Source of the DNA: an uncultured Candidatus Saccharibacteria bacterium
Lineage (GTDB): Bacteria > Patescibacteriota > Saccharimonadia > Saccharimonadales > 2-12-FULL-41-12
Reading direction: 5' to 3'
DNA length: 64,000 bases
Assembly (NCBI GenBank): GCA_964615775.1
Contig: CAZTQB010000001.1
Span: 60,599-124,598 of the forward strand
Position numbers and translations under genes: made by a program. The notes beneath the pieces are model-generated. The model searched no databases. It saw only the letters and a program-made list of their open reading frames with translations, and was not told the DNA's origin. The first letter of the stretch is position 1. Each line of letters opens with the position of its first letter. This document shows positions 34,187-50,485 of this stretch, one piece after another.

Positions 34187-34600
34187 ATGCCAACAATCAA
34201 TCAACTAGTGCGTAAGCCTAGGAAAAAGGTGACTTCAAGCAGTAAGTCGCCAGCTCTTCACCGTGTGGTGAACAATCTAAAAACTAAAAACTACGAAAAA
34301 AATGCACCATTTAAGCGTGGAGTTTGCGTCAAAGTAACTACCAAAACGCCAAAAAAGCCTAACTCTGCCCTTCGTAAGGTGGCTCGTGTGCGTTTGCAGA
34401 ATGGCTATGAAGTTTGGGCTTACATTGGTGGAGAAGGCCACAACTTGCAGGAACACGCAGTAGTGATGATACGTGGCGGTCGAGTAAAAGATTTGCCTGG
34501 TGTACGATATCATATTGTTCGTGGTACATTGGACCTTCAGGGTGTAGCTGATCGTAAGCAAGGTAGAAGTAAATATGGTGCTAAGAGGGAGAAGAAATAA
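34187..34600 (+). CDS. rpsL: 30S ribosomal protein S12
   Basis: [14 protein letters not shown]...[13 protein letters not shown]...: canonical S12. Confidence 0.95.
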
Positions 34601-35079
34601 TGCCTAGAAAAGTAACCAAATCATTAGTTCGAGATATTCAGCCAGATCGTATGTACGATAGCGTAATGGTGCAGCGTCTGATCAACCGTGTCATGTTGAA
34701 CGGCAAGAAGCAAACAGCTGAAAAACTTGTATATAACGGCATGCAAGAAGCAGCCGACAAACTAAAAGTCAAAAACCCATTAGATGTTTTTGAACAAGCT
34801 ATGAAAAACGTTCAGCCACATGTAGAGACTCGCTCACGTCGTGTTGGTGGAGCTAACTATCAGATTCCTTTTGAAGTCAAAGGTCAACGCCAAAATCACC
34901 TAACATTAATGTGGTTTGTGCAGTCGGCACGCTCGCGTAAGGGCATGAGTATGCAAAGTCGCCTGGCTTTAGAGCTGATGGACGCTTACAATAACACTGG
35001 TACAGCTGTCAAAAAGCGTGAAGATGTTCACAAAATGGCTGAAGCCAACCGAGCCTTCGCTCACTTTGCTCGTAGTTAA
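34600..35079 (+). CDS. rpsG: 30S ribosomal protein S7
   Basis: 159 aa with an S7-like sequence (…GKKQTAEKLVYNGM…ANYQIPFEVKGQRQ…). It follows rpsL with a 1-nt overlap. Confidence 0.9.
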   Translation: MPRKVTKSLVRDIQPDRMYDSVMVQRLINRVMLNGKKQTAEKLVYNGMQEAADKLKVKNPLDVFEQAMKNVQPHVETRSRRVGGANYQIPFEVKGQRQNHLTLMWFVQSARSRKGMSMQSRLALELMDAYNNTGTAVKKREDVHKMAEANRAFAHFARS

Positions 35080-35372
35080 GCAGATTTTTTAGTAATAAAA
35101 CACGTAGGCAACTTTTTTAATTGTAAAAATACTTGCTTTATACTACGAAATATATATACGAAATATCAATATTTACGAAGTTTAGAAAATGTTGTATTCT
35201 TTTAATAGTCACAGGGGTGACTTAGTTTTGTGTTACATTCTTTCGATTAATAAACTTTAGGTGAGAGGAGCTTATAAACCGGAGGAATCTTCGGCTCTTT
35301 GGCATTGGCCAAAGGTGAACCCCGCACCTTAACAAACTGGTACAAAATAAAAATATTATAGGGGGTGAGCAA

Positions 35373-36845
35373 ATGAGTCCTGTTGATTTTGGAAAATTTC
35401 GTGGTCAACATAAAGAAGACAACGAAATTTCTAATCAACCCCATCAGGAGAAAGTCAGCCAGCACGAAGTACAAGTTCGTGTTCGTGATTGGTCGGAAGT
35501 CAACTCTGGGTCGAGACTAAAGTTCAATCGAGCAGAAGTCTCCAACAGGTTTACACATGCATTCAAGAAGCCTGGCTTTGTGGCTTGGGCATGCTTGTTC
35601 GGTGTAACTATTGTACTCTTGGCCGTGATTGCCCTGAGTGCTAGCACGATCATCAGTGCAGTTGCAATCATGCTAATGATTGCCGTAGTAACGTTTGGTA
35701 TCTATCGAGTTTATACTCGGAGCGAGGTACCAGACTTCGAAACTCCCATCGAGACGGTTTTGCCCGATCGAGGAGTCTCGAAGGTTCGCTACATGGTAAA
35801 TCGAAAGTTTGGGCGACCCGATATTGTTCCGAGTATCAACAAGGAGCAAGAGAGCGATATTTTCGAGCAGCGGATTAAGCTGCTTGAAGGCAGGATTCGC
35901 GATATCGTCAACCTTGGTGTCCACCCGAACATTTGGGTAGGCAACCAAAAAGGTAGCTCGGCGAAGTCAGTCATGGCAGTTATCATGGGTGAAATCTTGG
36001 CAGAAATCACTCGTCGAATTGTTGTGCTGCTCCCATCGTCTACCTCAACTCAGACTGCAACCGCAGGAAATTTGGCAGGTGTACGTGGTAAGACCCTAAC
36101 TTTGCGTCAGTATGCCACCAAATTGCAAGATGAAGAGATTAGCTTTCACGAGCTTTTTAAGATGGTTGCAGTAACCAAACACGGACTGCGTGTTATCTCT
36201 GAAGACACCATATCTAACGACAAGAGCAATTTCTCGAAGGTAAGATGGTTGAAAGTCCACTCGCATCTTCGAGAGAACGCAGAAATCATCATTTCCGATA
36301 CCGGGAATGATGATGCATATGCCTACACCGTGACTTCGGTTGCGATGAGGCAGTCTGACGTGGTGGTGGTTGCTGCAAACCGACTTATGAAGCAAACTTT
36401 GGAGTCGGCAGGAGCAACACTGGCGTACTATATGCACATGCAAAAAAACATTCGACAAGCAGTGGCAGGAGAAGGTCAAGCACTGGAAGGCGACTTGATT
36501 CCTGTCAGTGAAAAACTTGAGAATGCAGTCGTAGTGATGAATGCTTATGACCATGATGAAGGCAACGAGGAGTTTGTTTCTCGGCTCTCTAGTGGAATTA
36601 AGCTGTCAGGCGGAAATCCTTCGCTGTTCTCTAAGACAAGAGTATTTGGGGTGCAGGAAGATGATCATCTGTATGACACAGTTGAAGGGCTCGATTACAC
36701 TCAGATGGCTCGAGCAACATATTTCGACTATCTAGTAGTGATCGTTGCAGTATTTGAACAAGCAGCTCTGTTGCAAAAGGTCAAGGTTCCTAAGCGACAC
36801 TGGCTGATCAAGAACGTGGGCATTATTATGCCGTCGCCCTCGTAA
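35373..36845 (+). CDS. Island gene 1: membrane-anchored protein with degenerate P-loop (possible diverged coupling/ParA-like ATPase)
   Basis: 490 aa. Two N-terminal TM helices (FVAWACLFGVTIVLLAVIALSASTIISAVAIMLMIAVVTFGIY), then a ~400-aa soluble domain containing IWVGNQKGSSAKSVMAVIMGEI. This resembles a P-loop but is degenerate (QKGSSAKS versus GxxxxGKS). Confidence 0.45.
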   Translation: MSPVDFGKFRGQHKEDNEISNQPHQEKVSQHEVQVRVRDWSEVNSGSRLKFNRAEVSNRFTHAFKKPGFVAWACLFGVTIVLLAVIALSASTIISAVAIMLMIAVVTFGIYRVYTRSEVPDFETPIETVLPDRGVSKVRYMVNRKFGRPDIVPSINKEQESDIFEQRIKLLEGRIRDIVNLGVHPNIWVGNQKGSSAKSVMAVIMGEILAEITRRIVVLLPSSTSTQTATAGNLAGVRGKTLTLRQYATKLQDEEISFHELFKMVAVTKHGLRVISEDTISNDKSNFSKVRWLKVHSHLRENAEIIISDTGNDDAYAYTVTSVAMRQSDVVVVAANRLMKQTLESAGATLAYYMHMQKNIRQAVAGEGQALEGDLIPVSEKLENAVVVMNAYDHDEGNEEFVSRLSSGIKLSGGNPSLFSKTRVFGVQEDDHLYDTVEGLDYTQMARATYFDYLVVIVAVFEQAALLQKVKVPKRHWLIKNVGIIMPSPS

Positions 36846-36869
36846 GTATCTCCACTAAAAGGAGGAGAC

Positions 36870-37193
36870 ATGAGAAACCTCAAAATGTGGCTGAGCAGTT
36901 TGGTGATGATTTTGGTGCTGCCAGCTACCAGCTTGGCAATTAACACCAACCCCAAAGCACCGCCTGTGCTTGGACCAATTGGGCAGAACTGGGTGCAATG
37001 GGCAGTCTGGATTTTCATCGTCATTGCCCTGATCTTTGTCGGAATTGGCTTGCTTAAGTGGATTTCGGCGATCGGTAACGGTCGAAGCTCGGGACAAGCA
37101 ATTGCCATGATTGTGGCAGCCATCGTTGCCATAATCATTTTGTCCGACCTTCAGGGTTGGACGACACGACTCAGCCAGCTTTTCAGGCCGTGA
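36870..37193 (+). CDS. Island gene 2: small pilin-like membrane protein (VirB2/TrbC-like candidate)
   Basis: 107 aa. Signal peptide (…LVLPATSLA|IN) followed by two hydrophobic helices separated by a short loop. SD AAAGGAGGAGAC lies upstream. Confidence 0.4.
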   Translation: MRNLKMWLSSLVMILVLPATSLAINTNPKAPPVLGPIGQNWVQWAVWIFIVIALIFVGIGLLKWISAIGNGRSSGQAIAMIVAAIVAIIILSDLQGWTTRLSQLFRP

Positions 37194-37256
37194 GTCAATT
37201 TGGTGTCAGTCGCCTAGGTATCTTTGTCCTAGGCGACTAAACCATAGGAGAGAAAA

Positions 37257-37976
37257 ATGAATTTCAGAAAGCTGAGATGGTTTGTAGTGCCATTCGCTTT
37301 ATTGATGGTAATTGCAGTTGTGCTTGCGAATATTGACCATACGGTTACGCGAACGCAAACTATTACCAAAGATGCGAGTGGAAATACTGTCAGTAACCCA
37401 CCATCGCCTGTCGATCCTTCATCATCGAGTGTTGATGATGCACGTCGTTCGGCTGGCAATACGGTGGCGGTGTTGACATCGGCTTTTCTTTCACCTGAAG
37501 CGGACTTTCGTAATCAGGTGGATGAAGTTGCTACTCAGGAAACTGCCAGTCAACTTCGTAAGCTTTACTCTGGCTATGAAGCTGATGGTAAGCAGGTTCC
37601 TGCAGTAGGAGGAGATGCAATGGCAAAAAGCTTAGGGTACTCGTCTCTAGCTGATTTTCAGCAAAAAGGCAGGTATGACTTCCAAGCACTTCAGTACAAA
37701 GTCAAAAGTTTTGAAGCAGGAAAAAGTGCTGTGGTTGGTGTTTACGGCATCACAACCGTAATAACCAAGAAAAATCAGCGTTATTTTCAGCAGGATGTTC
37801 CATCGATCCAGATCTTGAGAATGGTTTGGCAAGATGGAAAGTGGCGTTATGACAAGCAACTTCGTCCACTAAAGGGTGAAGTACCAAGCTTCACAGAATC
37901 TGGCCAAAGTTTTACTCAGATTCTGGCGAAGTACAAGCTAGTCCTCGAGAATCAGAGGTACAAGACTTATGACTAA
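37257..37976 (+). CDS. Island gene 3: bitopic membrane protein (VirB8-like candidate)
   Basis: 239 aa. A single N-terminal TM (LRWFVVPFALLMVIAVVLANI), then a ~200-aa extracytoplasmic domain. Size and topology fit VirB8/TcpC-like proteins, with no sequence-level proof. Confidence 0.3.
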   Translation: MNFRKLRWFVVPFALLMVIAVVLANIDHTVTRTQTITKDASGNTVSNPPSPVDPSSSSVDDARRSAGNTVAVLTSAFLSPEADFRNQVDEVATQETASQLRKLYSGYEADGKQVPAVGGDAMAKSLGYSSLADFQQKGRYDFQALQYKVKSFEAGKSAVVGVYGITTVITKKNQRYFQQDVPSIQILRMVWQDGKWRYDKQLRPLKGEVPSFTESGQSFTQILAKYKLVLENQRYKTYD

Positions 37977-39093
37977 AACTCGTTGGCTCTCTAGCAGTTT
38001 GGTGATGCTTGTTTGCTTGTTCGGATTTATGAGCTGGCAAATGGCAAAACCAGACAAAGCTGGAGCAGATATCCTTGGGATTCCGACACCTTGTGATGTC
38101 ATTCCAAACCAAACCGCCTCCAACGTCTGTGGGGGGATCATTAATCCGATAGCTGGAGCCAATAATGTAATTGGTGCCATTCCGGGTGTGCCAAATCCGT
38201 CACAGATACCTGGCAAGGCGATTGGGAAAATAAAAGATGAAGTAGTTAGTCATACCGTTGAGCCAATGCTACGTGAAGTAGCTAAATTCTTTGGTATGGG
38301 AGTAATTTGGGGCTTGAAGATGGAAATCAAGTTCATCACACGAACAACATCACCGAACCTTAATGCTGCATGGTTCTCTGTGGCCTATCAGCAAATTCTT
38401 TGGCTTGCTTACATTTGGGCGTACATAGCCTTTATGTATCGGCTTGTAAAAGGAGCAAAAGAAGCGGATCTTGCTATCCACTTCTCCACATTCTTCAAAA
38501 TGGGAGTGTTTATTGCTCTCACAGGAGGAATGATGCTGACGGCAGCCTCTTGGCTGGTGACATTGGTAGACAAAAAACTCGTACCTGAACTCGCTGATGT
38601 AATGGGAGTTCAATTGGGCGATGTTATGAAAAACGTTGAGGGCTACCTCAACCAAATTATTGCTGGACAATTAGGCGTAGTAGCGGTACTGTTCACAATT
38701 TTTGTAATTGGAACAGTACTGTCTGGTGCAACGTTGTTTGTAATGGTATTTCGTTATATGTTTATACCATTACTGATCCTTGCTGCTCTATTCGCGTTAG
38801 CTCATAGCATCGGCGAAGAATCATGGGACAGGGCTAAAAAGGCCTTCTTGACCATCGGAGCTTGGATCGCATTTCCTGCAATATTGCTGTTTGTACTACA
38901 GTTGGGACTAGCTATGACATTAGAAGCCAATGATGCATTTACCACAATGATCATTCTATGTGCCACAACTGTGATGCCTTTGATCATCGGTATTTGGGCA
39001 ATCAAGAAAATCAGTGGTGCTGATTTCAAGGTTGAACCAGTCAAGCGAGCCGTGATTGCTCGTGCCTATTACACTAAGTTCAGGTCGAGTTAA
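37969..39093 (+). CDS. Island gene 4: polytopic membrane protein (VirB6/TrbL-like candidate)
   Basis: 374 aa. Signal/TM1, a ~70-aa extracellular loop, then about 6 further TM helices. Confidence 0.45.
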   Translation: MTKTRWLSSSLVMLVCLFGFMSWQMAKPDKAGADILGIPTPCDVIPNQTASNVCGGIINPIAGANNVIGAIPGVPNPSQIPGKAIGKIKDEVVSHTVEPMLREVAKFFGMGVIWGLKMEIKFITRTTSPNLNAAWFSVAYQQILWLAYIWAYIAFMYRLVKGAKEADLAIHFSTFFKMGVFIALTGGMMLTAASWLVTLVDKKLVPELADVMGVQLGDVMKNVEGYLNQIIAGQLGVVAVLFTIFVIGTVLSGATLFVMVFRYMFIPLLILAALFALAHSIGEESWDRAKKAFLTIGAWIAFPAILLFVLQLGLAMTLEANDAFTTMIILCATTVMPLIIGIWAIKKISGADFKVEPVKRAVIARAYYTKFRSS

Positions 39094-39152
39094 TGATTAA
39101 CCGTTCAAGGGTAAAGGCATGGATGCCTTCAACTAATGTTGGGAGGTGAGAA

Positions 39153-40727
39153 GTGTCTGAGCGACATCCGATTGAAAAAGAGCGTGGAATTCGAATTGTT
39201 GGGTCGCTAAGGCTCGATCATTCCACGATCTTTGCAGTTGTGCTGGTTGTAATCCTTTTGGTGCTTTTGCAGATTGTACCATTTGGAATATGGCTAGGCA
39301 TTACGTTTCTGGCAGCTGCTTTTTGGGGACTGCTAGTTTATGTCCCAGTTTCCAGAGACGGCAAACCGCTCCTCGCAATCCTCTATCGAAGGGCGAATTT
39401 TGACCTCGGTCAGAATGAGTTTTTCGACAAACGAGTCGAACGAGGAGAAAACTTCGAACTAACTAAACGTGCTAAGCGTGAATTCGCTAAGCGTTTGGGC
39501 AAGTTAGAACTTGTTCCATTTGAGATTTCGGGACAGAAGCTGTGCATTTATGATGATAAGCGAGATGAGACTTACACGTTCGTTGTGTATGTCAAAATCA
39601 GCTCTCTCTTCAATGCCAGCTCGCAAGAACGAGAATACCGTACAGAAGCATTTTCGAAGTTGCTCGATGTTGTAAAGAAGCATGAATTTTACCGATTCTC
39701 TTGGCAGGTGCAAGTTTTGCCAGGAGAAGCATTGAATCTTCGTTCAGAACGAGAAACAATGCTTAAGGTTAATGATCTAGTGAATAATAAATCAGACAAA
39801 GTCCACCAATTTATCGATGCTTACGAGCAAAAGATAATGGAACTGTCGTCTGAGAGAGTGGTGTCTCTACGGTTTACTGTCAAAAAAGATGATCCTCGAA
39901 TTAGGCACGCTCGCAAAAAGACAAAAATTACGACTGGCGAGTTTTTGTACAATCTCGTTGGTCAACTTGCCGATGAAGTAGGCCTGACCGATAGTCTGGC
40001 TAACAATCCATTTGGCATAAGTCAAGTTGATGCCCACACTTACAATGAGTCAGTTATGGACATCGGTCTGTTACTAGATCAAGTTTCAAAACTGCCTTTG
40101 GTTAGGGAGATGCGTAAGACTGGTATTCTCGAGCAATCTGACAAGCAAATTGATGAAAAGCTCGGTTTACCGACAGTCTGCGGTTTTGAAGCGAATCATG
40201 CCTGGCTCGGTGAAACGGTTCATATGAGCTTTTTCATCGAAAGTCTCTCCGAGTACGGATTGACGCCCACAGAATTTTTGTGGTTGATGAACCTCAGTAA
40301 TGAAGAAGGGCAGTCTGCAAAAGTAATTCCTTTGACTGTGACTGCTGTATATCAGCCAGTTTCACGGTCATCGACCAGTCGTATCTCGAGGTTCAATCGT
40401 AATACGACCAGCTCTATCATCGCCGACAAGCAGCTAGCTGGTTCAGCGGTGGATGCAGATCTGCAACGTGAGGCAGAATTGGCGAAACAAAAAACCATTC
40501 GGTTGGCATCGAGCCGTTCTGAATCACTTCGGATGAGAGTGTATGTTTCACTCCAAGGCAGTTCCGTCGAAGAAGTTACTGCCAATGCTGAGATTCTTCG
40601 CTCGACCGCAGCTAGGAATAACTGCAGTGTGCAAGGTCTTACGCTTAGGCAGTACGAAGGTGTATCTGTTGTGTTGCCCCTTGGACGTGGCCTCGCAGCT
40701 TTGAACTTCAAGGGAGTTTTCAAATGA
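39153..40727 (+). CDS. Island gene 5: VirB3-like TM pair fused to VirB4 N-terminal-domain-like region (candidate)
   Basis: 524 aa. GTG start 6 nt after GGGAGGTGAGAA. Two N-terminal TM helices, then a large soluble domain. It sits immediately upstream of the VirB4-type ATPase domain gene. Confidence 0.4.
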   Translation: MSERHPIEKERGIRIVGSLRLDHSTIFAVVLVVILLVLLQIVPFGIWLGITFLAAAFWGLLVYVPVSRDGKPLLAILYRRANFDLGQNEFFDKRVERGENFELTKRAKREFAKRLGKLELVPFEISGQKLCIYDDKRDETYTFVVYVKISSLFNASSQEREYRTEAFSKLLDVVKKHEFYRFSWQVQVLPGEALNLRSERETMLKVNDLVNNKSDKVHQFIDAYEQKIMELSSERVVSLRFTVKKDDPRIRHARKKTKITTGEFLYNLVGQLADEVGLTDSLANNPFGISQVDAHTYNESVMDIGLLLDQVSKLPLVREMRKTGILEQSDKQIDEKLGLPTVCGFEANHAWLGETVHMSFFIESLSEYGLTPTEFLWLMNLSNEEGQSAKVIPLTVTAVYQPVSRSSTSRISRFNRNTTSSIIADKQLAGSAVDADLQREAELAKQKTIRLASSRSESLRMRVYVSLQGSSVEEVTANAEILRSTAARNNCSVQGLTLRQYEGVSVVLPLGRGLAALNFKGVFK

Positions 40728-40803
40728 TTTTATCAAAGTTTACTCAACATAAACTAAAGATAAAATCGACCTCTTAACCTAAAAACGAGGGAGGTGAGAA
40801 GAA

Positions 40804-42156
40804 TTGGCTATTGATAAAAGCCATCTTGCACGAATTGTTAGCGGTGATACTTTGCCGACTTTTCGTGAAATGACCGAAGACCTAGCTCCTGTCAATCCGC
40901 TGTGTCTGGAACACGGATTTATCAATCCTAAAACTGGGCAAAAATTGATTGGCGTACCTCTGGGTATTGCTGGTCTCGGTGGAATAGCGGGTAACTTTGA
41001 GTTTTGTGAGTACACCGCCCATCAGGCTGATCCTGAAACGGCGTTTTCGCTAAACTCGATTGTCTTTGGACAAACAGGCTATCGCAAGTCATCTGGAGAA
41101 AAAATAAGAATTTTGCGTGATACTTTGCTTTTTTCACGCAACTATCTGGTCACTGATCGAAAGGGTGAGTACCGTGTGCTAGCGGGATACATCGACGGTG
41201 CAAAAGTCCTTAACTTCAGTGACAATGCTCAGTACTTCATTAATCCTTTGGACCCTGTCATGGGACTAGATGCTCAATTGGAGCTACTGACTGCATTGAT
41301 TGTAACCGCAGGAAAACACTTCACTCAGGGGCTTACACCACTGGAGAATACTCTCTTGTGGAACTCGATTATCGAATGTCACAATTCCCCTGGGATAATA
41401 GGTATTCCGACTTTGCCGAGCTTGATCGAAAAACTCCGAAACCCTTCTGCTAGTACAGTCGAAGATTTGAGTGTCGGAAATATCGATGATATCAACAAGC
41501 TTAGTGCAAATCTCAGATTGACGCTCGAACGTCTATCTGAAAAAGGTAATCTTGCTGGAATGTTTCACAAACCAACGACGCCAGGGCTTTTTGATGCAGT
41601 GCCGTTGCTGGTTCTAGACTGTGAGGGACTTGATGGCGAGAAAGCGGTTGTAATGACCACTCTCATCAACTTCTTTACTCTCGAAAAAAATGCAAAATCA
41701 TCTTCAGATAACAGGTTTCATCACGTTATCCATGATGAATCGTGGGACCTTGCAGCATACAGCGGATTTGTCAGTTCGGTGAGGCGGGCCTATAAGCTCG
41801 GACGGAGCAAAGGTTTTGGTAACCGAATGGTGGTTCACCATTGGCAAAACCTTATTCGATCTGCTACATCTCAGATCGAAGACATCGCCAGTGACACCTC
41901 ATTGGTTATCAGTTATCGGCAAAACCGAGCTGAACTTGAAGCTAGTTCACATCTGTTTGGGTATACAGATAATGAAATTGAAAGGATTGTAAAACTTCCT
42001 CAAGGCCATGCTCTGTATAAGTTCACTACTGGCAACATACCCGCACTCGAGGTGCGATATGTAGCCATGCCGTGGGAGATTCCGCTGCTCGAAACAAGCC
42101 ACCTCGTTAAGGGCAAAAGCGGACTTTCATCAAGTGAACTGGCGTCAACTTCCTAG
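40804..42156 (+). CDS. Island gene 6: VirB4/TrbE-family ATPase C-terminal domain
   Basis: 450 aa. TTG start 9 nt after GGAGG. P-loop-like IVFGQTGYRKSSGEK (aligns with VirB4 GxTGxGKS but has Arg at the second conserved Gly) and Walker B/VirB4 signature LLVLDCEG...HHVIHDESWDLA (DEAW-type). Confidence 0.6.
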   Translation: MAIDKSHLARIVSGDTLPTFREMTEDLAPVNPLCLEHGFINPKTGQKLIGVPLGIAGLGGIAGNFEFCEYTAHQADPETAFSLNSIVFGQTGYRKSSGEKIRILRDTLLFSRNYLVTDRKGEYRVLAGYIDGAKVLNFSDNAQYFINPLDPVMGLDAQLELLTALIVTAGKHFTQGLTPLENTLLWNSIIECHNSPGIIGIPTLPSLIEKLRNPSASTVEDLSVGNIDDINKLSANLRLTLERLSEKGNLAGMFHKPTTPGLFDAVPLLVLDCEGLDGEKAVVMTTLINFFTLEKNAKSSSDNRFHHVIHDESWDLAAYSGFVSSVRRAYKLGRSKGFGNRMVVHHWQNLIRSATSQIEDIASDTSLVISYRQNRAELEASSHLFGYTDNEIERIVKLPQGHALYKFTTGNIPALEVRYVAMPWEIPLLETSHLVKGKSGLSSSELASTS

Positions 42157-42168
42157 GGTTGAGATATC

Positions 42169-43287
42169 ATGTCCCATAAAAATGGAAGTGAAGCACTAAA
42201 AGCAGGTATAGTGGGGTGGCTAATTGGAGTGATTGGTTTTCCAGTCATTCTGATGTCAGTAGGTGTGGTATCGATAGTTATGTTTGTCTTAATGATCGGC
42301 AGTAGCACTATGTCGGCTGGTGGATGTGCCACAGCAGTTACTGGCGATAATAATACCCAGAAGACGTACAACTATCTTATGCAGTCTGAGTTCGATCTCA
42401 AACCTTTTCAGGCGGCTGCGATTGTCGGTAACTTCATCCACGAAAGTGGTGGAGATCCACTCAAAACTAACAATCCCAACCCAACTTCAGGTGCTGTGGG
42501 GATTGCACAGTGGCTAGGTAGTCGGCAAACAGCTCTTAAGGCTCACAACTACCAAGGCAAAACCTGGACTGATATTGATTTTCAGTTAGACTTCATGAAG
42601 TCTGAACTCTTTGGAGGCTGGAAATCTGCACTTATTGCGGTCAGACGCTCTACTACAATTGAAGAGGCAACCGTAATATTTGAGAAAATATATGAAGTAT
42701 CAGGCGACACTGGATCGTATCCTAAGAGAATTAAAAACGCCAAAAACGTTTTAGAAAAATATGGAAAAAGTGCATCCAGCAATCTAGGATGTGTAAGTGT
42801 CGCAGTAAGTGGTACACTTACTGATCCTGGCAAAGGTCCTCAAAACCCCAAGACCGGCTTAGTGCCTCGATCAGAAAATCTTCAAAAATTTATTTTTGCT
42901 AATTGGGGATGCGAGAAGCTTCACGGTACACCATGTATTCGTGAAATTGGCGGATACAGTGTTCGTCCTGCTGGTACTCCGCAGGATCACACTCTCGGTC
43001 TGGCTCTTGATATTACAGTTAGTGACGGAATCGGTAAGTACCCGTCGCCAACGGAGCAATCCCTGGGTTGGCAAATTGCCTGCTTTCTGGCAAGTAACGC
43101 TAGTAAAGTAGGTGTCAGGTATCTTATTTGGCAAGGTAAAATCTGGAATGTTACTCGTCTTAACGAAGGCAATTCAGCCGCTTGTCAACTAGGAACAGGG
43201 TGGCGTCCATACACCTACGGATATGGTGTAACTGAAGGTCATTATGACCACGTACATGTCACTGTTCAGCCTGGAGTGGGTGGTTAA
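42169..43287 (+). CDS. Island gene 7: membrane-anchored two-domain peptidoglycan hydrolase (lysozyme-like + LAS/M15-like peptidase)
   Basis: 372 aa. N-terminal TM (LIGVIGFPVILMSVGVVSIVMFVLMIG). A lysozyme-like domain with FQAAAIVGNFIHESGGDP...GAVGIAQW (CwlT/phage-tail-lysozyme-type signature). A C-terminal domain with DHTLGLALDI (HxxGxAxD) and TEGHYDHVHV (ExxH / HxH), typical of LAS-superfamily (VanY/M15-like) zinc peptidases. Confidence 0.65.
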   Translation: MSHKNGSEALKAGIVGWLIGVIGFPVILMSVGVVSIVMFVLMIGSSTMSAGGCATAVTGDNNTQKTYNYLMQSEFDLKPFQAAAIVGNFIHESGGDPLKTNNPNPTSGAVGIAQWLGSRQTALKAHNYQGKTWTDIDFQLDFMKSELFGGWKSALIAVRRSTTIEEATVIFEKIYEVSGDTGSYPKRIKNAKNVLEKYGKSASSNLGCVSVAVSGTLTDPGKGPQNPKTGLVPRSENLQKFIFANWGCEKLHGTPCIREIGGYSVRPAGTPQDHTLGLALDITVSDGIGKYPSPTEQSLGWQIACFLASNASKVGVRYLIWQGKIWNVTRLNEGNSAACQLGTGWRPYTYGYGVTEGHYDHVHVTVQPGVGG

Positions 43288-43749
43288 GATGAGGCCAACC
43301 TCCTCTAGGACCAATCAAAATCAAAAAGGAATCACAAGACACAAACGAAAACGTACTAACAGGTTGGAGTTCCTATCTTCGTCTAGAGTTCCAGTTGAAA
43401 TATTTATATATATTATCAACTGTCGAGCCAGACCAAAGATTGCGGATTCGCCACCAAAAAGGAACTTTTTTGTCCACCTACGTGGACGACTAAGTTCAGC
43501 GTCCGGCTTTAGTCGAGTGCCAAAACTAGCTCTTTAAAAAGAGCAGCCATTAACACTCGACTTTAGCCAGTAAGGCTTTGAGTAGAATGCTAGCAGAATT
43601 GTTAGACTTTCCTCGCCAAATTTATGGCTCTAAATATTTCAGATGCTGGTCTCGCTCCCGAGATCTCCTGACATATTTAGTGCCTTTTGCTACATAAATG
43701 TGTATTTATGCTGATGATTCCAAAAGGATGAAAGCAAAAATTAAGCTGT

Positions 43750-44706
43750 TTAGTAGTTTTTACGCCGACCAAATCGGCTACGAAAATCTCCGTCAGATAA
43801 TAATGCAGCTATACCTACAACTAATATAATCGAAACTACGCCTCCTAGACCAATTCTCTCGAAAAAGTTACCTACACCGCTTAGAGGGTTGCGATTGTTA
43901 GTGTCGTAGGGTTGTCTGCCTTCGAAGGCGGCATCGTCAATCAATAGGCGTCTAGATGATATCTGTGGGTTTACGGCTGAAGAACCAGCAGGACATAGCT
44001 GACTATCAACAGCTGATTTTATAAAATTAATATTCTGCTTAGACATTCTGGTTGGGTCGCGGTGCATATAGCCGCTGTCTTTTGTCGCTCGACGGAAGTT
44101 AGTGCGATATTTCTCGGTAGTCGATATGTGGTCTTCATTTAAAATTACTGGCAAGAACGGATTACGGCTCTCAGAGTTCCTGAAAATAATTGTTGAAACA
44201 CTTGGTTTTAGTGGCCGAGTAATCGCACCATTACTCTTAGTGCAGGCGGTTGTACTTACACTGAGTGTTTCAACGCTGTTATTACCTGCTGCTAAATCAT
44301 CGTTTAAAACACGGGCAATATTAAAATTAGATAAAACTACCGAACGACCAGAGTTTTTCTTAAGATTGGCAGCTAAGAGTTCAGAGAATGTTTGCCCTGC
44401 CAAAGCAGACTCAGCCTCAGTCGAAGTTTTAGATTTTGGTTGGTCATCACCGCAAGACTTAATTGCCCCAAAAATAGCTAAACTGCCAATTAAAACAGAG
44501 GTCCCGATAAGTAATGTTAGTTTATTTCGTTCGTAAAAACTCTTGTCGGAGTCTTCTAGTACTACTTGAGGCTTCCGATATTCGTCGTAAGTAGCGTTTG
44601 TGGCTTCATTATTCTCTAGATTCTCTGGCGGAAAGATCTTGTTGTCATGACTTTTTTCATTATCAGACTCTTTATTTGTCATAATAATATATTTTACGCT
44701 CAGCAA
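43750..44706 (-). CDS. Hypothetical membrane protein (TM near both termini)
   Basis: 318 aa. Acidic N-terminal cytoplasmic region, a TM (LTLLIGTSVLIGSLAIFGAI), a ~230-aa S/T/N-rich extracytoplasmic region and a C-terminal TM (GLGGVVSIILVVGIAALL). Composition is AT-rich like the host. Confidence 0.45.
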   Translation of the reverse strand: MLSVKYIIMTNKESDNEKSHDNKIFPPENLENNEATNATYDEYRKPQVVLEDSDKSFYERNKLTLLIGTSVLIGSLAIFGAIKSCGDDQPKSKTSTEAESALAGQTFSELLAANLKKNSGRSVVLSNFNIARVLNDDLAAGNNSVETLSVSTTACTKSNGAITRPLKPSVSTIIFRNSESRNPFLPVILNEDHISTTEKYRTNFRRATKDSGYMHRDPTRMSKQNINFIKSAVDSQLCPAGSSAVNPQISSRRLLIDDAAFEGRQPYDTNNRNPLSGVGNFFERIGLGGVVSIILVVGIAALLSDGDFRSRFGRRKNY

Positions 44707-44813
44707 ATATAATTGTATATTATTTAATTTACAACAGCCGTTTAGCTATTAACCATTTTGTGGTAAAATTAGGTAAAGTATTATTAAAATTTATTTGAAA
44801 AGGGATATTAAAC

Positions 44814-46895
44814 GTGGCAAAAGTAGACATTAACAAACTCCGAAATATTGGAATCATTGCCCATATTGATGCAGGTAAGACAACGACTACCGAAGGTATT
44901 TTGTATCGAACTGGCCTAAAGCACAAAATTGGAGCTGTGCATGAGGGTGAAACTACAACTGACTGGATGGCTCAGGAACGTGAACGAGGTATCACTATTG
45001 TGTCAGCGGCGGTTACTTGCCACTGGAGAGATCATCAGATTAACATCATTGATACACCCGGTCACATCGATTTTACAGTAGAAGTGCAACGTAGTTTGCG
45101 AGTGCTAGATGGAGCAATTACGGTGTTTGACGGTAAAATGGGTGTCGAATCTCAATCAGAAACTGTTTGGCGACAAGCTGACAGCTACAACGTGCCGCGT
45201 ATTTGTTTTATTAACAAAATTAACCAAACTGGTGGCGATTTTTATAAGTCGCTTGAATCAATCCACAATCGTCTTAGCAAGCGAGCTTTTCCGATCCATT
45301 TGCCGATTGGCTTTGAGCAGTCCGTTAATGGAATTGTCGATCTAGTAAGTATGAAATCGTACACTTATAAAGATTTTACAGACAAAGAGCTGGTTGAAGG
45401 AGAAATCCCGGCTGATATGCTTGAAGAGGCTAAACGTTACCGAAGTTTGCTTATCGAGAATGCTGTTGCAGAAGATGAAGCTATGCTTGAAAAATACCTA
45501 GAAGTTGGCGAAGAAGGCATGAGTGAAGAAGACATTCGTTCAAGTATTCGTTCAGCAGTGCTAACTGGTGCATTTTTCATCGTAACTGGCGGTGATGGTC
45601 GAGGTGTAATTGTAGAGAAGTTGCTAGATATTGCTACCGAATACCTACCAAGTCCACTTGACAGAGGCTCTAACTGGGGTACACACCCCAAAACTGATGA
45701 AGAAGTCGAACGAAAGCCGTCTGAGAGTGAGCCACTAGCTGGCCTAGCCTTCAAGATTACGACTGACCCATTTGTTGGCAAGTTGGCTTATTACCGAGTT
45801 TATTCTGGCAAGCTAACTGCCGGAAGCTATGTTTTGAACAGCTCGACTGGCGAAAAAGAGCGAATTGGCCGAATTGTTCGCATGCAAGCTGATAAGCGAG
45901 AGGAAGTTAGCGAAGTGGTGGCTGGCGATATTGCTGCTATCGTCGGACTTAAAAATACCACTACTGGTAACACGCTGTGCGACCAAAACAACCCAATAAT
46001 CTTAGAGAGCATCACCTTCCCAGAGCCACCAGTAAGTATTGCTATCGAGCCAAAAACTAAGTCTGACCAAGAAAAAATGAGCCTGGCTTTGCAACGACTA
46101 GCCGAAGAAGACCCAACTTTTCGGGTAAACGTCAATGACGAAACTGGTCAAACTATCATCTCTGGTATGGGTGAATTACACCTTGAAATTTTAGTAGATC
46201 GCATGAAGCGAGAGTTCTCAGTAGAAGCAAATATAGGTCAGCCACAGGTCGCTTATCGTGAAACTATCCGTAAGGACGCTGTAGAAGTAGAAGGTAAGTT
46301 TGTTCGTCAGAGTGGTGGTCGTGGTCAGTATGGCCATGTTTGGCTACGCCTTAGCCAGAATGAAGCAGGTAAGGGCTTCGAGTTTATCAACTCTATCAAG
46401 GGTGGAGTTGTGCCTGGTGAGTATATCAAGCCGGTTCAGCAAGGAATTGAAGAGGCTATGAGTAATGGTGTTGTAGCTGGTTACCCGGTAGTCGATATTA
46501 AAGCAGAATTATATGATGGTAGTTACCACGACGTTGACTCTTCAGAGATGGCCTTTAAAATTGCTGGATCAATGGCTCTACAAGATGGTGTCAAGAAAGC
46601 TAGTCCAGTTTTGCTGGAGCCAATTATGAAGGTAGTAGCAGTAACTCCAGAAGAATTTATGGGTGATGTAATTGGTTCATTGAACTCAAAGCGTGGTCGT
46701 ATTGAAAGTATGGACGACCTTCAGAATGGTGTTAAGCAAATTACCGCTTTTGTACCACTGGGTGAGTTATTTGGTTATACTACAGAGCTAAGAAGCTCTA
46801 CCCAGGGTCGAGCTAGTTCGTCAATGGAGCTAGATCACTATGCCGACGTACCGCCAAATGTTGCCGAAGCTATAATTGCCAAAAACGGCAAATAA
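44814..46895 (+). CDS. fusA: Elongation factor G
   Basis: GTG start. [27 protein letters not shown]...DTPGHIDF... Full five-domain length (693 aa). Confidence 0.95.
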
Positions 46896-46901
46896 AAGCA
46901 C

Positions 46902-49106
46902 TTAAATCAGTTTTTTCAGTAACTCATGAACATGGCTGACTGAACGAATGCGGTAATTAGCTGCAGTTTGGTCGCGTCCAACCTTGATAGTGTAATTATG
47001 CTTGCCAATTACTTTAAACATATCTTCATCTGTATAATCATCACCAATTGCCAAAATTAAGCTTGGCTTTAGTTTCTTAATAGTACTAGCTACTAAGATA
47101 TCTTTACCTACAGTTTTGGGTTTAATCTCGATTATTTTACTGCCTTGGCAAATGTCAAGAGAAGTATCTAGTAAGATTCGGCTTAATTCATTTATCAGTC
47201 CTTCTTTTCGTACAAATGCCAGTTGTTCCGGAACTGTACGATAATGCCAAACTATTGAGGATTTTTTGTCTTCTACGTATGCTCCAGGTGTTCGTAGCGT
47301 ATATTTAGTAAGTAAGTTTAAAATTTCTTGCCTCTTGCCGTCAAAATTATGCTCTTTAGTTTGCCATTTTCCATCAACTTTTAATGCTGCACCATGCTCA
47401 CCTGCTAAGTTGACCTTGTAACTGCCAAACCATTTTTCCAGAGTTTCAGCTGGTCTACCACTGATAATATAAACTGTATTTTTAGGATCACTTGATATTT
47501 TTTTTAAAATATCACGCAGGTCTTTCGATGGCTCGGGATCGTAGATTTTTTGAGTTGAAACAAAATCACGTAACGTACCATCATAATCCAGTAAAATTAG
47601 ACGTTTTTTAGATTGAGTGTAGTTTTCATATAGCTTTAGCTCATCTTTTTTTGTCATAATTTTGCGGTATTGGGTTGCTTGAGTTTGTTTGATGGCTCGA
47701 AGCTGTTCAATAAAATCTTCTGCCCATCGTTGTATTGTGTATTCAGAAATACGTTGTTTCATCAATTTGATACGAGCTTTTTGTTGTTTTTCGGGCATGT
47801 TTAAACCGTCTTCAATCGCTTTGACGATGCTACGAGTGTCGTTGGGATTAACCTTTATAGCTTCATGCAGCTCATCAACTGCACCGGCCATCTCGCTCAA
47901 GATAAGAACACCATCGTTGTCAGTCCGGCAAGCCACAAATTCTTTAGCAACTAGGTTCATACCGTCTCTTATTGGTGTAACTAAAGCAATATCTGATGCA
48001 CTGTAGAGTGCGACTAATTCGTCGAAAGGTAAATTTTTGAACTGATAAGAAATTGGCGTCCATTTAACATCGGCGTACTGACCGTTAATTCGGCCAATAG
48101 CCTGCTCAATTTGATCACGCAAATGTTGATAAGTTTCTACGTCCGTTCGTGATGGTACGGCTACCACGACCAGACTGACTTTACCGTGTTGATGCGGATG
48201 TTCTTTTAAAAATAGCTCAAAAGCTTCCAAACGCTCTAAAATGCCTTTTGAATAATCTAGTCTGTCGACTGACAGAATTATTTTTTGATTTTTGTAGATT
48301 TTGTTGATTTCTCTAGCCCGTTTGCTGACAGTCCGAGAGTTGGCGGCTTCATCAAACTTTTTGTAATCAATTCCAATCGGGAAGCTGTCGGCCGTAGTGT
48401 TGCGGCCATAATTGTCAATCGACGAGCCTTTAACTTCGCTGGACAAGATCCTCTTGCAGCTACTTAAAAAATGCCTAACGTAGTCGTAAATATGAAAGCC
48501 AACTAAATCGCTTCCCATAAGCCCCTCTAATATTTCACGACGATTTGGTAGCTGCCGAATAATCTCATATGACGGGAATGGAATATGCAGGAAAAAGCCA
48601 ATTGCTAATCTTGGCAAGAGTATTCGCAGTTTTTGTGGTAGGAGCATTAGGTGATAATCATGAACCCAAACATAAGAGTTTACGTCAATATTAGTTATGA
48701 CCGCACTTGCATAGGCTTCATTTACATCTTGATAAGCTTTCCAGTATTTAGGGTTGTTGTTTGCATAAGATTGAAAATAATGGAACAGCGGCCAAATTGT
48801 ATCGTTGGCATAGCCTGAGTAAAAATTATCAACCTGTTTTTGATTGAGATAAACTGGTATAAAATTATGTTCTTCTAGAGTAGCCTCGATCTGTTTTCTG
48901 TCATCTGTAGTTAACTCTTCGCTAGCAATTCCTGGCCAGCCAATCCATAAAAAAGATTCTTTGTCTATGTCTAGAGACGACATTGCCGTAGCTAATCCAC
49001 CGCTACTACTCGAGAACTGCAGCTTACCCTTCTCGTCTTTTGATACGCTAATCGGCAACCGGTTAGATACAACTACCAGTTTCTGTCCTGACTCTAGTAA
49101 ACTCAT
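46902..49106 (-). CDS. Bifunctional trehalose-6-phosphate synthase (GT20) / trehalose-6-phosphate phosphatase (HAD) fusion
   Basis: OtsA-like N-terminal half (LVVVSNRLP, WVHDYHLMLLP, glycosyltransferase core) and OtsB-like HAD C-terminal half (LILLDYDGTL, ...GDDYTDEDMF). The start is set at the internal Met (MSLLESGQK), which has an AAGGAG SD. The track's 49331 start would overlap tuf. Confidence 0.8.
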   Translation of the reverse strand: MSLLESGQKLVVVSNRLPISVSKDEKGKLQFSSSSGGLATAMSSLDIDKESFLWIGWPGIASEELTTDDRKQIEATLEEHNFIPVYLNQKQVDNFYSGYANDTIWPLFHYFQSYANNNPKYWKAYQDVNEAYASAVITNIDVNSYVWVHDYHLMLLPQKLRILLPRLAIGFFLHIPFPSYEIIRQLPNRREILEGLMGSDLVGFHIYDYVRHFLSSCKRILSSEVKGSSIDNYGRNTTADSFPIGIDYKKFDEAANSRTVSKRAREINKIYKNQKIILSVDRLDYSKGILERLEAFELFLKEHPHQHGKVSLVVVAVPSRTDVETYQHLRDQIEQAIGRINGQYADVKWTPISYQFKNLPFDELVALYSASDIALVTPIRDGMNLVAKEFVACRTDNDGVLILSEMAGAVDELHEAIKVNPNDTRSIVKAIEDGLNMPEKQQKARIKLMKQRISEYTIQRWAEDFIEQLRAIKQTQATQYRKIMTKKDELKLYENYTQSKKRLILLDYDGTLRDFVSTQKIYDPEPSKDLRDILKKISSDPKNTVYIISGRPAETLEKWFGSYKVNLAGEHGAALKVDGKWQTKEHNFDGKRQEILNLLTKYTLRTPGAYVEDKKSSIVWHYRTVPEQLAFVRKEGLINELSRILLDTSLDICQGSKIIEIKPKTVGKDILVASTIKKLKPSLILAIGDDYTDEDMFKVIGKHNYTIKVGRDQTAANYRIRSVSHVHELLKKLI

Positions 49107-49300
49107 TTTTCTCCTTCTTAGCCTCTTAATAGAGAGTATATCATTATATTTACAAACTAAATTGTTAGCTATGTTACATTTAATATCTTTACATGGAGTA
49201 CTAAAATAGGTTAATATATCTCGGTAACATATGTGTGCCTTTAGTTTTGCCTTGGCTACGCATATTTTAATAACAATAATTAATTTTAAGGAGCTAAATA

Positions 49301-50485
49301 ATGGCTGACCAATTTGACAGAAGCAAGCCACACGTAAACGTTGGTACTATGGGTCACGTTGACCACGGTAAAACTACGTTGACGGCTGCTATCACACACG
49401 TACTTGCAAAGAAACTTCCAAGTGCAGTAAACCAACCTAAGAATTACGAAGATATCGACAATGCCCCAGAGGAAAAAGCTCGTGGTATTACGATTGCTAC
49501 TTCTCACCAAGAGTATGAAAGCGAAAAGCGTCACTATGCTCACGTCGACATGCCTGGTCACGCCGACTACGTCAAAAACATGATTACTGGTGCGGCTCAG
49601 ATTGATGGTGCTATTTTGGTTGTGGGTGCCAATGATGGTCCTTTACCACAAACTCGTGAGCATGTTTTGCTTGCTCGGCAGGTTGGTGTGCCAAAAATTC
49701 TTGTTTTTATGAACAAAATGGACCTAGCCGACCCAGAGTTAGTTGAACTTGTAGAGATGGATATCCGAGAGTTGCTTGCAAAAAACGGTTTTGATGAGGA
49801 TGCTCCTATTATTAAAGGTTCTGCCACTAAAGCTCTAGATGGTGACGCTGCTAGCGAAGACGCTATTATGGAACTAGTTAAAGCTATGGATGACTTCATT
49901 CCAGAGCCAAAGCGTGAACTAGATAAGCCATTTTTGATGCCTGTTGAGGACGTTTTCTCAATCAAAGGTCGTGGTACTGTAGCCACAGGTCGTATTGAAC
50001 AGGGTATTGTTAAGATAAACGATGAAGTCGAAATTGTTGGTATTCGTGACCCACGAAAGTCTGTTGTAACTGGTATTGAAGCCTTCAAGAAAAATCTTGA
50101 TCAAGGACAGGCTGGCGACAACGCAGGTATTTTACTGCGAGGTATCGAGCGAGATGATATTGAACGTGGTCAGGTTATTGCTAAGCCGGGTTCTATTACA
50201 CCTCACACTGAATTTGAGTCAGAGGTTTATATTCTTACTAAAGAGGAGGGTGGTCGTCACACACCATTCTTCAAGGGCTATAAACCACAATTTTACTTCC
50301 GTACAACTGACGTGACTGGTGAAGTTGAGCTGCCAGCTGACAAAGAAATGGTTATGCCAGGTGACACAATAACCTTTACTGTTAAGCTACAGGCTCCAAT
50401 TGCTATGGAGCAAGGTCTTCGTTTTGCTATTCGTGAAGGTGGCCGTACTGTTGGTGCTGGTGTAGTTACCAAGATCAATAAATAA
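49301..50485 (+). CDS. tuf: Elongation factor Tu
   Basis: [32 protein letters not shown]...[18 protein letters not shown]... 394 aa. AAGGAG SD upstream. Confidence 0.95.

Follow-up and report, generated by a model that had tools for sequence, protein, structure and literature searches.

A 64,000-nucleotide (nt) stretch of DNA from an uncultured Candidatus Saccharibacteria bacterium (hereafter the window; positions are those of this whole stretch unless another locus is named) carries two neighbouring open reading frames (ORFs) that resemble the two halves of a VirB4-type secretion ATPase. An earlier reading of the sequence, below called the original prediction, had proposed a VirB4 apparently split between these ORFs, and the coordinates, the non-ATG starts (GTG and TTG) and the differing frames that it gave are all present in the sequence. 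The pair, which we call N-ORF and C-ORF, and the elements belonging to it are as follows.

39141..39153, plus strand: first copy of the 13-mer GGGAGGTGAGAAG, an extended Shine-Dalgarno sequence whose last base is the G that opens the GTG start
39153..40727, plus strand: putative VirB4 N-terminal-domain subunit, SCO6880-like (N-ORF), GTG start, 524 amino acids (aa)
40728..40803, plus strand: spacer between the halves, 76 nt, with stops in every frame and no terminator-like hairpin found
40789..40801, plus strand: second copy of GGGAGGTGAGAAG, an extended Shine-Dalgarno sequence 2 nt 5' of the TTG start
40804..42156, plus strand: putative VirB4 C-terminal ATPase subunit, CmdB-like (C-ORF), TTG start, 450 aa

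The C-ORF resembles the motor domain of VirB4 in sequence and in predicted structure. A profile made from the C-ORF and 13 homologs matched the VirB4 C-terminal domain of PDB entry 4AG5 over ∼370 residues (E value 1e-10). The AlphaFold2 model of the C-ORF had a predicted local distance difference test (pLDDT) score of 89.2 and a predicted template modelling (pTM) score of 0.86, and its best PDB match in Foldseek was 4AG5 (E value 2e-14, template modelling score 0.69), followed by HerA, TrwB and TrwK. The VirB4-type Walker B/DEAW signature named in the original prediction, HHVIHDESWDLA, is present and holds the Walker B pair D311/E312 (nt 41734-41739), and its VIHDE fits the canonical hhhhDE. 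The alignment to 4AG5 also pairs a Gln of a conserved VirB4 motif with H346 (window 41836-41841 for H345-H346), with a register that is uncertain by one residue. The H346 position is Arg, His or Lys across the split VirB4 family and the adjoining H345 is nearly invariant. The motif Gln has been described as binding nucleoside triphosphate (NTP) (PMC2653234), and H346 may mark a second point at which the nucleotide site deviates throughout the family.

The N-ORF begins with a transmembrane (TM) hairpin (helices at residues 23-41 and 44-63, nt 39219-39341), continues into a cytoplasmic VirB4 N-terminal-domain fold and ends in a conserved LPLGRGL motif. Residues 25-206 matched the NCBIfam model SCO6880_fam (NF042935) with an E value of 8e-9 and 34.9 bits, against a curated cut-off of 60 bits; by this score the N-ORF appears to be a distant relative of the SCO6880 family and not a model-level member. 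It also matched, weakly and colinearly, the N-halves of the CD1110 VirB4 model and of VirB4_plasma (24.9 bits, cut-off 590). A search against Pfam gave no match, and a sequence-profile search of the PDB with the N-ORF alignment returned nothing relevant. When the N-ORF model was searched against the PDB with Foldseek, all 14 significant matches were TrwK/VirB4 chains of R388 (E values 2e-7 to 4e-5), and the next match had an E value of 0.7. Word-indexed homolog searches with the single sequence and with the profile found the N-ORF itself and one relative, and its orthologs were taken from the loci located via the C-ORF, six further loci having one.

Aligned across the ORF junction, the N-ORF followed by the C-ORF was colinear both with a fused relative and with canonical VirB4. 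Relatives in which both parts are fused are rare and comprise P0054 (928 aa), P0150 (932 aa) and P0116 (867 aa), each with a strong SCO6880_fam N-half (E values 4e-94, 2e-64 and 5e-39) followed by a VirB4 ATPase. Their SCO6880_fam scores of 316, 218 and 134 bits pass the 60-bit cut-off, as does the 68 bits of the Curtobacterium ortholog. In profile comparisons with hhalign, the N-ORF aligned with residues 96-510 of P0054 (probability 98.5%, E value 4e-15), the alignment ending at the common LPLGRGL motif, and the C-ORF profile aligned with residues 515-921. This result and the Foldseek matches to TrwK/VirB4 support the claim of the original prediction that the upstream ORF is a VirB4 N-terminal domain with a TM hairpin. 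On the full-length VirB4 models, the N-ORF spans positions 29-456 of 894 and 233-363 of 752, and the C-ORF positions 415-554 of 752. By these alignments, no part of VirB4 is missing or duplicated, and the break falls in the linker that connects the N-terminal with the C-terminal domain.

The two domains are not joined here in one polypeptide of ∼800 aa, and the split is kept in relatives. Separate N and C genes were found in 7/7 distinct related loci (L001, L002, L003, L005/L006, L007, L012 and a Curtobacterium plasmid), the two genes being 16-189 nt apart. The closest relative, L012, has a spacer of 16 nt and proteins that are 60% (N) and 74% (C) identical to those of the window. Every homolog that a word-indexed search with the C-ORF returned, to identities as low as 34%, is a stand-alone protein of 437-487 aa, and an exhaustive profile search identified 3125 family members at E values of 1e-3 or below. 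The best of these hits that cover both Walker motifs gave a set of 151 representatives, among which 135 have stand-alone size (520 aa or less). The three N+C fusions occur at scattered places in a neighbour-joining tree of the family, which suggests that fusion is secondary. Named family members belong to Candidatus Saccharibacteria and Actinomycetota: the C-ORF profile search of genome contigs yielded two loci, both in metagenome-assembled genomes of Saccharibacteria, the nearest homologs outside Saccharibacteria are actinobacterial, and plasmid homologs detected by tblastn are almost all actinobacterial, including 41 Streptomyces plasmids with stand-alone ATP/GTP-binding genes. Of the three options weighed in the original prediction, a genuine two-subunit VirB4 is the one borne out by the split loci and the colinearity. 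We also observed two unusual architectures among homologs of the stand-alone ATPase, namely P0134, in which the ATPase is joined to a beta-helix and to a VanY D-Ala-D-Ala carboxypeptidase domain, and Actinomycetota proteins of the P0046 cluster that contain a LAGLIDADG intein (the forms of 895 aa; the cluster has 77 members).

The junction itself agrees in two assemblies, as L009, a separate assembly of a public run, is 100% identical to the window across 39804-43156. Both ORFs are full length compared with their orthologs. A fusion of the two by a simple frameshift or by readthrough is ruled out, because the spacer has stops in all three frames. A scan of the spacer (40728-40803) found no terminator and one promoter-like match at chance level, so an internal promoter or terminator is unsupported, and the lack of a terminator-like hairpin is consistent with co-transcription of the two genes.

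The spacers of some relatives contain an element of their own. An inverted repeat of 12 bp with perfect conservation, GCTCGTCGGCGG-loop-CCGCCGACGAGC, lies at the spacer start in L001 (7861-7895), L002 (7851-7883) and L003 (7862-7892), and the same repeat is present in L004 (1338-1368) and L008 (from 6837). It occurs once per locus, between the VirB4-N and VirB4-C genes, and is absent from the window, L005, L007 and L012. In L001, L002 and L003 it is followed on the 3' side by a second hairpin with compensatory changes and then by a conserved CAATTCRA box. These three lineages are distant and their proteins are only 35-43% identical to those of the window; the invariance of the stem at the nucleotide level despite this divergence suggests that the repeat serves as a specific operator or acts in RNA processing or attenuation.

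The nucleotide-binding site of the C-ORF has one conspicuous deviation. Its Walker A motif, GQTGYRKS (residues 89-96, nt 41068-41091), departs from the canonical GxxxxGK[ST] in having Arg in place of Gly; this replacement of a conserved P-loop Gly, reported in the original prediction, was confirmed as R94, encoded by CGC at 41083-41085. In the C-ORF model, the GQTGYR stretch forms the loop that connects strand 85-88 to helix 95-110, as a P-loop would, and its pLDDT is 95 or higher. Within an alignment of 14 sequences, the window's clade has G-x4-R-K-S and the most distant members have G-x4-G-K-S. The Arg of RKS is encoded by CGC, CGA, CGT or CGG in different lineages. That the window's clade has kept it with each of the four CGN codons in use implies that it was maintained across synonymous change and points to selection on this residue. 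The comparison of orthologous clusters proposed with the original prediction thus revealed related clusters without a fused gene and an Arg kept in the window's clade. A single continuous gene with a GKS loop in close relatives had been named as a contrary case; the closest relatives are split and have RKS.

At a larger scale, the residue before the Walker A Lys is Gly in 101 of the 151 representatives, Arg in 30, Ala in 9, Trp in 5, His in 4 and Gln in 2. Fitch parsimony on the neighbour-joining tree reconstructed an ancestral Gly and required at least 33 changes at this position. Proteins with and without the Gly have about equal conservation of G89, K95, S96, D118, K120, E122, N147, D311, E312, W314, K331 and H345, and R334 is slightly less conserved in the non-Gly class (42/50, compared with 97/101 in the Gly class). 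We searched the 151 representatives for clean covariation of the P-loop residue with other motif positions and found none. The P-loop Gly position therefore appears to be tolerated and freely varying in this family, a pattern that argues against a decaying active site, and the window's Arg seems to be a lineage-conserved variant at a position that is unusually free to vary. With the remainder of the catalytic site intact, the RKS protein has most likely kept its ability to bind nucleotide and, probably, to hydrolyse it.

The pair is embedded in a cluster of seven genes whose order is shared with related loci: a ParA/MinD-like protein, a small TM protein, a TM protein of ∼240 aa, a polytopic protein, VirB4-N, VirB4-C and a cell-wall hydrolase. 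The five other genes are listed below.

35373..36845, plus strand: opening gene of the cluster, a ParA/MinD-like P-loop protein with a TM segment at its N-terminus (Pfam, alignment, synteny)
36870..37193, plus strand: small protein of 107 aa with a signal-like N-terminus and two hydrophobic helices (ORF, topology, position)
37257..37976, plus strand: 239-aa protein with an N-terminal TM helix, position conserved in all related loci
37969..39093, plus strand: 374-aa polytopic membrane protein in the VirB6/TrbL position directly 5' of VirB4 (synteny)
42169..43287, plus strand: cell-wall hydrolase with a Phage_lysozyme2 domain (Pfam PF18013, 6.8e-28) and an N-terminal TM segment, possibly with a VirB1-like role

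The first gene matched the Pfam models AAA_31 and CbiA weakly and below the curated cut-off, but its ortholog in L001 reaches the AAA_31 cut-off and that in L002 falls just under the cut-off of MipZ. The original prediction had regarded VirB4 as the only ATPase in the cluster, which does not hold, since this gene has a ParA/MinD-like P-loop domain. Its Walker A also lacks Gly before the Lys in the window (KGSSAKS) and in L005 (KGTSAKS), and reads KGGSGKT/S in L001-L003. In the same position, the Curtobacterium plasmid has a gene with a weak, sub-threshold ParA match and Frankia has a gene annotated as MinD/ParA. The small protein at 36870-37193 gave no significant match to family models. It occupies the pilin/VirB3/DUF6112 slot of related clusters, a position conserved in L002, L003, L005, L007 and L012, and we infer a pilin/VirB3/DUF6112-like protein from topology and position. 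The 239-aa protein (37257-37976) had no match to family models either. For the polytopic protein (37969-39093) Pfam gave no match, and a comparison by hhalign with the TrbL_3 protein that has the same position in L010, a fused actinobacterial VirB4 locus, was not significant (probability 10%); by its place it would presumably be the VirB6 component. The hydrolase gene lies directly 3' of the pair in L003, L005, L011 and L012, and the L001 ortholog had only sub-threshold SLT matches. Next to the cluster, a VirD4/TrwB-like gene is found in L005/L006 and an 874-aa ORF at the same position in L007, and the syntenic Curtobacterium plasmid encodes a coupling protein and a MobF relaxase. We saw no second VirB4 copy in the window.

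Together with an unannotated 318-aa ORF on the minus strand (43750-44706), the cluster sits between rpsL-rpsG and fusA (window 34187-46895), inside the classical str operon. The closest relative (locus L011) has the same layout on the fusA side, where a 310-aa ORF on the minus strand separates the lysozyme gene from fusA, and in more distant relatives the cluster is located elsewhere. There was no compositional signal of horizontal transfer, the GC content being 0.43-0.47 in the cluster and 0.42-0.44 in the flanks. Between fusA and tuf (49301-50485, plus strand) lies a gene for a fused trehalose-6-phosphate synthase/phosphatase (46902-49331, minus strand); the start of its longest ORF overlaps the tuf start by ∼30 nt, and the true start is therefore probably downstream.

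Overall, we conclude with a probability of about 0.85 that the window encodes a secretion ATPase of the VirB4 type whose natural form is a pair of polypeptides. Homology of both halves, their colinearity, the conserved split, the conserved Arg and the synteny are all read directly from sequence comparison, and by them the pair would be a member of a known split family, the bipartite VirB4 of an actinobacterial and Patescibacterial type IV secretion-like cluster. We further infer that the two halves associate physically, are co-transcribed and retain ATPase activity, and that a substrate is transported. According to this model, each gene of the co-transcribed pair would be translated from its own strong Shine-Dalgarno sequence. 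The SCO6880-like N subunit, bearing the whole VirB4 N-terminal domain, would be inserted in the membrane by its TM hairpin and would dock the C subunit, a RecA-like motor domain of the HerA-FtsK type, at the membrane beside the polytopic protein in the VirB6 position. The C subunit would oligomerise and spend ATP on assembly of, or transport by, a type IV secretion-like machine of the Gram-positive/actinobacterial type, encoded by the conserved seven-gene chromosomal cluster.

Several observations weigh against this conclusion. The window's proteins stay under the curated cut-offs of all the VirB4 models considered (TIGR00929, NF045971, NF045975 and Pfam AAA_10/P-loop_TraG), the C-ORF reaching 27 bits with CD1110 (cut-off 325) and 17.2 bits with AAA_10 (cut-off 27.5). 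The AlphaFold model of the N-ORF, predicted from a 5-sequence alignment, has low confidence (pLDDT 52.8, pTM 0.49). A coupling protein and a relaxase were not found within the 64-kb window. Finally, the Gly before the Walker A Lys is nearly invariant in P-loop NTPases, and a reduced or altered activity of the RKS protein is plausible.

The last point leads to an alternative that we consider unlikely but worth weighing, in which the ATPase activity of the C subunit is impaired and the protein only binds nucleotide or acts as a slow switch, with energy or regulation coming from the ParA/MinD-like protein or from a distant coupling protein. The last Walker A Gly, which contacts phosphate via its backbone, is replaced by Arg in the window and is missing in one third of the representatives. 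The Walker A Lys and Ser, the Walker B Asp and Glu and the other invariant residues are, however, equally kept in the non-Gly class, which would be unexpected if hydrolysis were dispensable, and the many flips on the tree occurred without visible relaxation elsewhere. The window's ParA-like protein, with Ala at the corresponding position, is itself a non-Gly protein and thus offers no obvious substitute. Published work can be cited on both sides: Rickettsia has VirB4 paralogs with mutated NTP-binding residues (PMC2653234), but a mutant of the conserved lysine K90 of the Streptomyces ATPase CmdB failed to complement, although the authors did not exclude destabilisation of the protein (PMC2782261).

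Returning to a two-subunit VirB4 that works as a motor, we can also imagine, as a decidedly speculative extension, that the P-loop here works differently. The Walker A Gly would not be required in this split family, where bulky residues (Arg, Trp, His, Gln) have repeatedly taken its place against an otherwise fixed active site. The Arg might contact phosphate in cis as a built-in arginine finger or phosphate sensor, or the motor might have become a slow nucleotide-gated switch that needs docking to the N subunit. Were this so, Saccharibacteria would run a mechanistically variant type IV secretion motor in a system essential to their epibiotic life.

The original prediction had also drawn attention to an identical 13-mer ahead of both ORFs and had considered a duplicated ribosome-binding module. 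The repeat is real: GGGAGGTGAGAAG occurs exactly twice in the 64 kb, at 39141-39153 and 40789-40801, each time directly before one of the two ORF starts. This restriction would suit a functional duplicated regulatory module, such as a translational-regulator site or a copied initiation cassette, as would the fact that both starts are non-ATG and that the window's spacer exceeds that of the closest relatives by 60 nt, but we regard such a module, beyond two strong ribosome-binding sites, as very improbable. Eight of the bases, GGAGGTGA, are nothing but the extended Shine-Dalgarno complement of the 16S ribosomal RNA tail, and only GAAG is extra to them. The likeness between the two copies ends at the boundaries of the 13-mer, and the distance from GGAGG to the start differs (6 nt and 9 nt). 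In L012 and all other relatives, both genes have unrelated ribosome-binding sites; the duplication is thus absent from the nearest relative, which speaks against its being meaningful. The simplest reading is that the 13-mers are two strong ribosome-binding sites for weak GTG and TTG starts, probably acquired in the window's lineage. Almost certainly wrong, finally, is the view that the split arose artificially or by recent pseudogenisation, through a sequencing or assembly error or a frameshift, with the Arg as part of the decay: canonical VirB4 is indeed a single chain and the window's ORFs differ in frame and start with non-ATG codons, but the two-gene state of every related locus down to 34% identity, the stand-alone size of most representatives, the full length of both ORFs, the stops throughout the spacer, the identical junction in the second assembly (L009) and the synonymous turnover of the Arg codon amid intact motifs all contradict it, and the comparative data have already refuted it.

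These findings bear on annotation in Saccharibacteria and Actinomycetota. An 'ATP-binding protein' of ∼450 aa that follows a TM protein of ∼520 aa labelled 'hypothetical' or 'SCO6880 family' should be read as one two-subunit VirB4, and annotated neither as a broken gene nor as an ATPase with an unrelated protein. The feature of modest interest is what appears to be a recurrent loss of the canonical Walker A Gly with the rest of the catalytic site preserved. A bipartite motor and a P-loop that tolerates Arg, Trp or His at the canonical Gly provide concrete handles for biochemistry, and the family gives P-loop enzymology a natural experiment in which a residue usually treated as invariant has varied.

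Among studied systems, the closest relatives of the split VirB4 family are probably CmdB and CmdC of Streptomyces, given the matches to the SCO6880 model, the likeness of SCO6878, SCO6880 and SCO6881 to cmdB, cmdC and cmdD (PMC2782261) and the tblastn matches on the 41 Streptomyces plasmids. In Streptomyces coelicolor, cmdABCDEF are co-transcribed and include CmdB, a stand-alone, VirB4-like, membrane-associated ATPase, and homologous SLP2 genes are required for plasmid transfer (PMC2782261). As in the window, a stand-alone VirB4-like ATPase of ∼430 aa lies beside an SCO6880-type membrane protein in CmdB/CmdC (SCO4127/SCO4128), in the paralogs SCO6878/SCO6880 and in SLP2.21-23. The CmdB cluster is a co-transcribed cluster of membrane-protein genes, and the Walker A lysine of CmdB, K90, has a position similar to that of K95 in the C-ORF. 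The order reported in Frankia, MinD/ParA, DUF6112, two hypothetical proteins, SCO6880 family and TraC, is that of the window's cluster, and it is found on the Curtobacterium plasmid too. Unlike the Cmd system, the window comes from a Saccharibacteria-like host with a reduced genome, its P-loop is RKS, no relaxase or coupling protein lies nearby, the SCO6880 score is below the cut-off and identity to actinobacterial plasmid homologs is ∼25%. The cmd phenotype, which concerns sporulation and antibiotic production, cannot apply to the window's host.

Pfam PF11130 represents the N-terminal domain of TraC, the VirB4 homolog of the F plasmid. In Patescibacteria, a TrsD homolog usually adjoins virB4 and is essential in S. 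epibionticum ML1 (Quinonero-Coronel 2025, PMC12102498), and type IV secretion clusters have been reported to be essential for the epibiotic growth of this cultivated Saccharibacterium, Southlakia epibionticum ML1 (Wang 2023, PMC10633639). In the available part of Table S3, TrsD usually lies directly beside VirB4, the majority of VirB4 hits span only 52-60% of the profile and PF11130 is matched by some TrsD homologs (PMC12102498). The accessions of our relatives were not found in the part of the paper's tables available to us (PMC12102498). As far as these tables go, the Patescibacteria clusters resemble the window in the host group and in having a gene like the VirB4 N-terminus beside a half-coverage VirB4 (PMC12102498); a lysozyme or peptidase gene downstream, a chromosomal location and, mostly, the lack of a relaxase are further points of likeness. 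Unlike these clusters, the window has no VirB2 pilin array, and its locus lies between rpsG and fusA and not near dnaA. A bipartite VirB4 is thus already visible in the published Patescibacteria data, to the extent that those tables were available, though not described there as a split VirB4.

A comparable division exists in the Staphylococcus conjugative plasmid pSK41/pGO1, the prototype of the mating-pair formation (MPF)-FATA class, where the VirB4 ATPase TrsE is preceded by a small protein, TrsD (227 aa), said to resemble the VirB4 N-terminus. The C-ORF (residues 33-410) aligned with TrsE 221-613 in hhalign (probability 95.9%), and N-ORF residues 348-516 aligned weakly with TrsE 48-204 (probability 21%, E value 0.001). 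The break point hence differs, as TrsE (672 aa) appears to keep the second half of the N-terminal domain, whereas the window has the entire domain on the upstream gene. The N-ORF profile had no detectable similarity to pSK41 TrsD in hhalign with a single-sequence template (probability 0.2%), and an identity of the N-ORF with TrsD was rejected on this comparison.

Of the other VirB4 proteins, Rickettsia VirB4b is, like the window's protein, a VirB4 homolog with substituted NTP-binding positions that has been retained in evolution (PMC2653234). It has seven changed NTP-binding residues and is a second paralog beside a canonical copy, whereas the window has a single varying position in a split protein. 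The canonical single-chain proteins, TrwK of R388 and VirB4 of Thermoanaerobacter pseudethanolicus (4AG5), have the same two folds in the same order and have the Walker A Lys/Ser and Walker B Asp/Glu in common with the window. They differ from it in that the window has two polypeptides, a TM hairpin fused to the N-terminal domain and an Arg in Walker A and, tentatively, in that their motif Gln aligns with the His/Arg/Lys position of the window's family.

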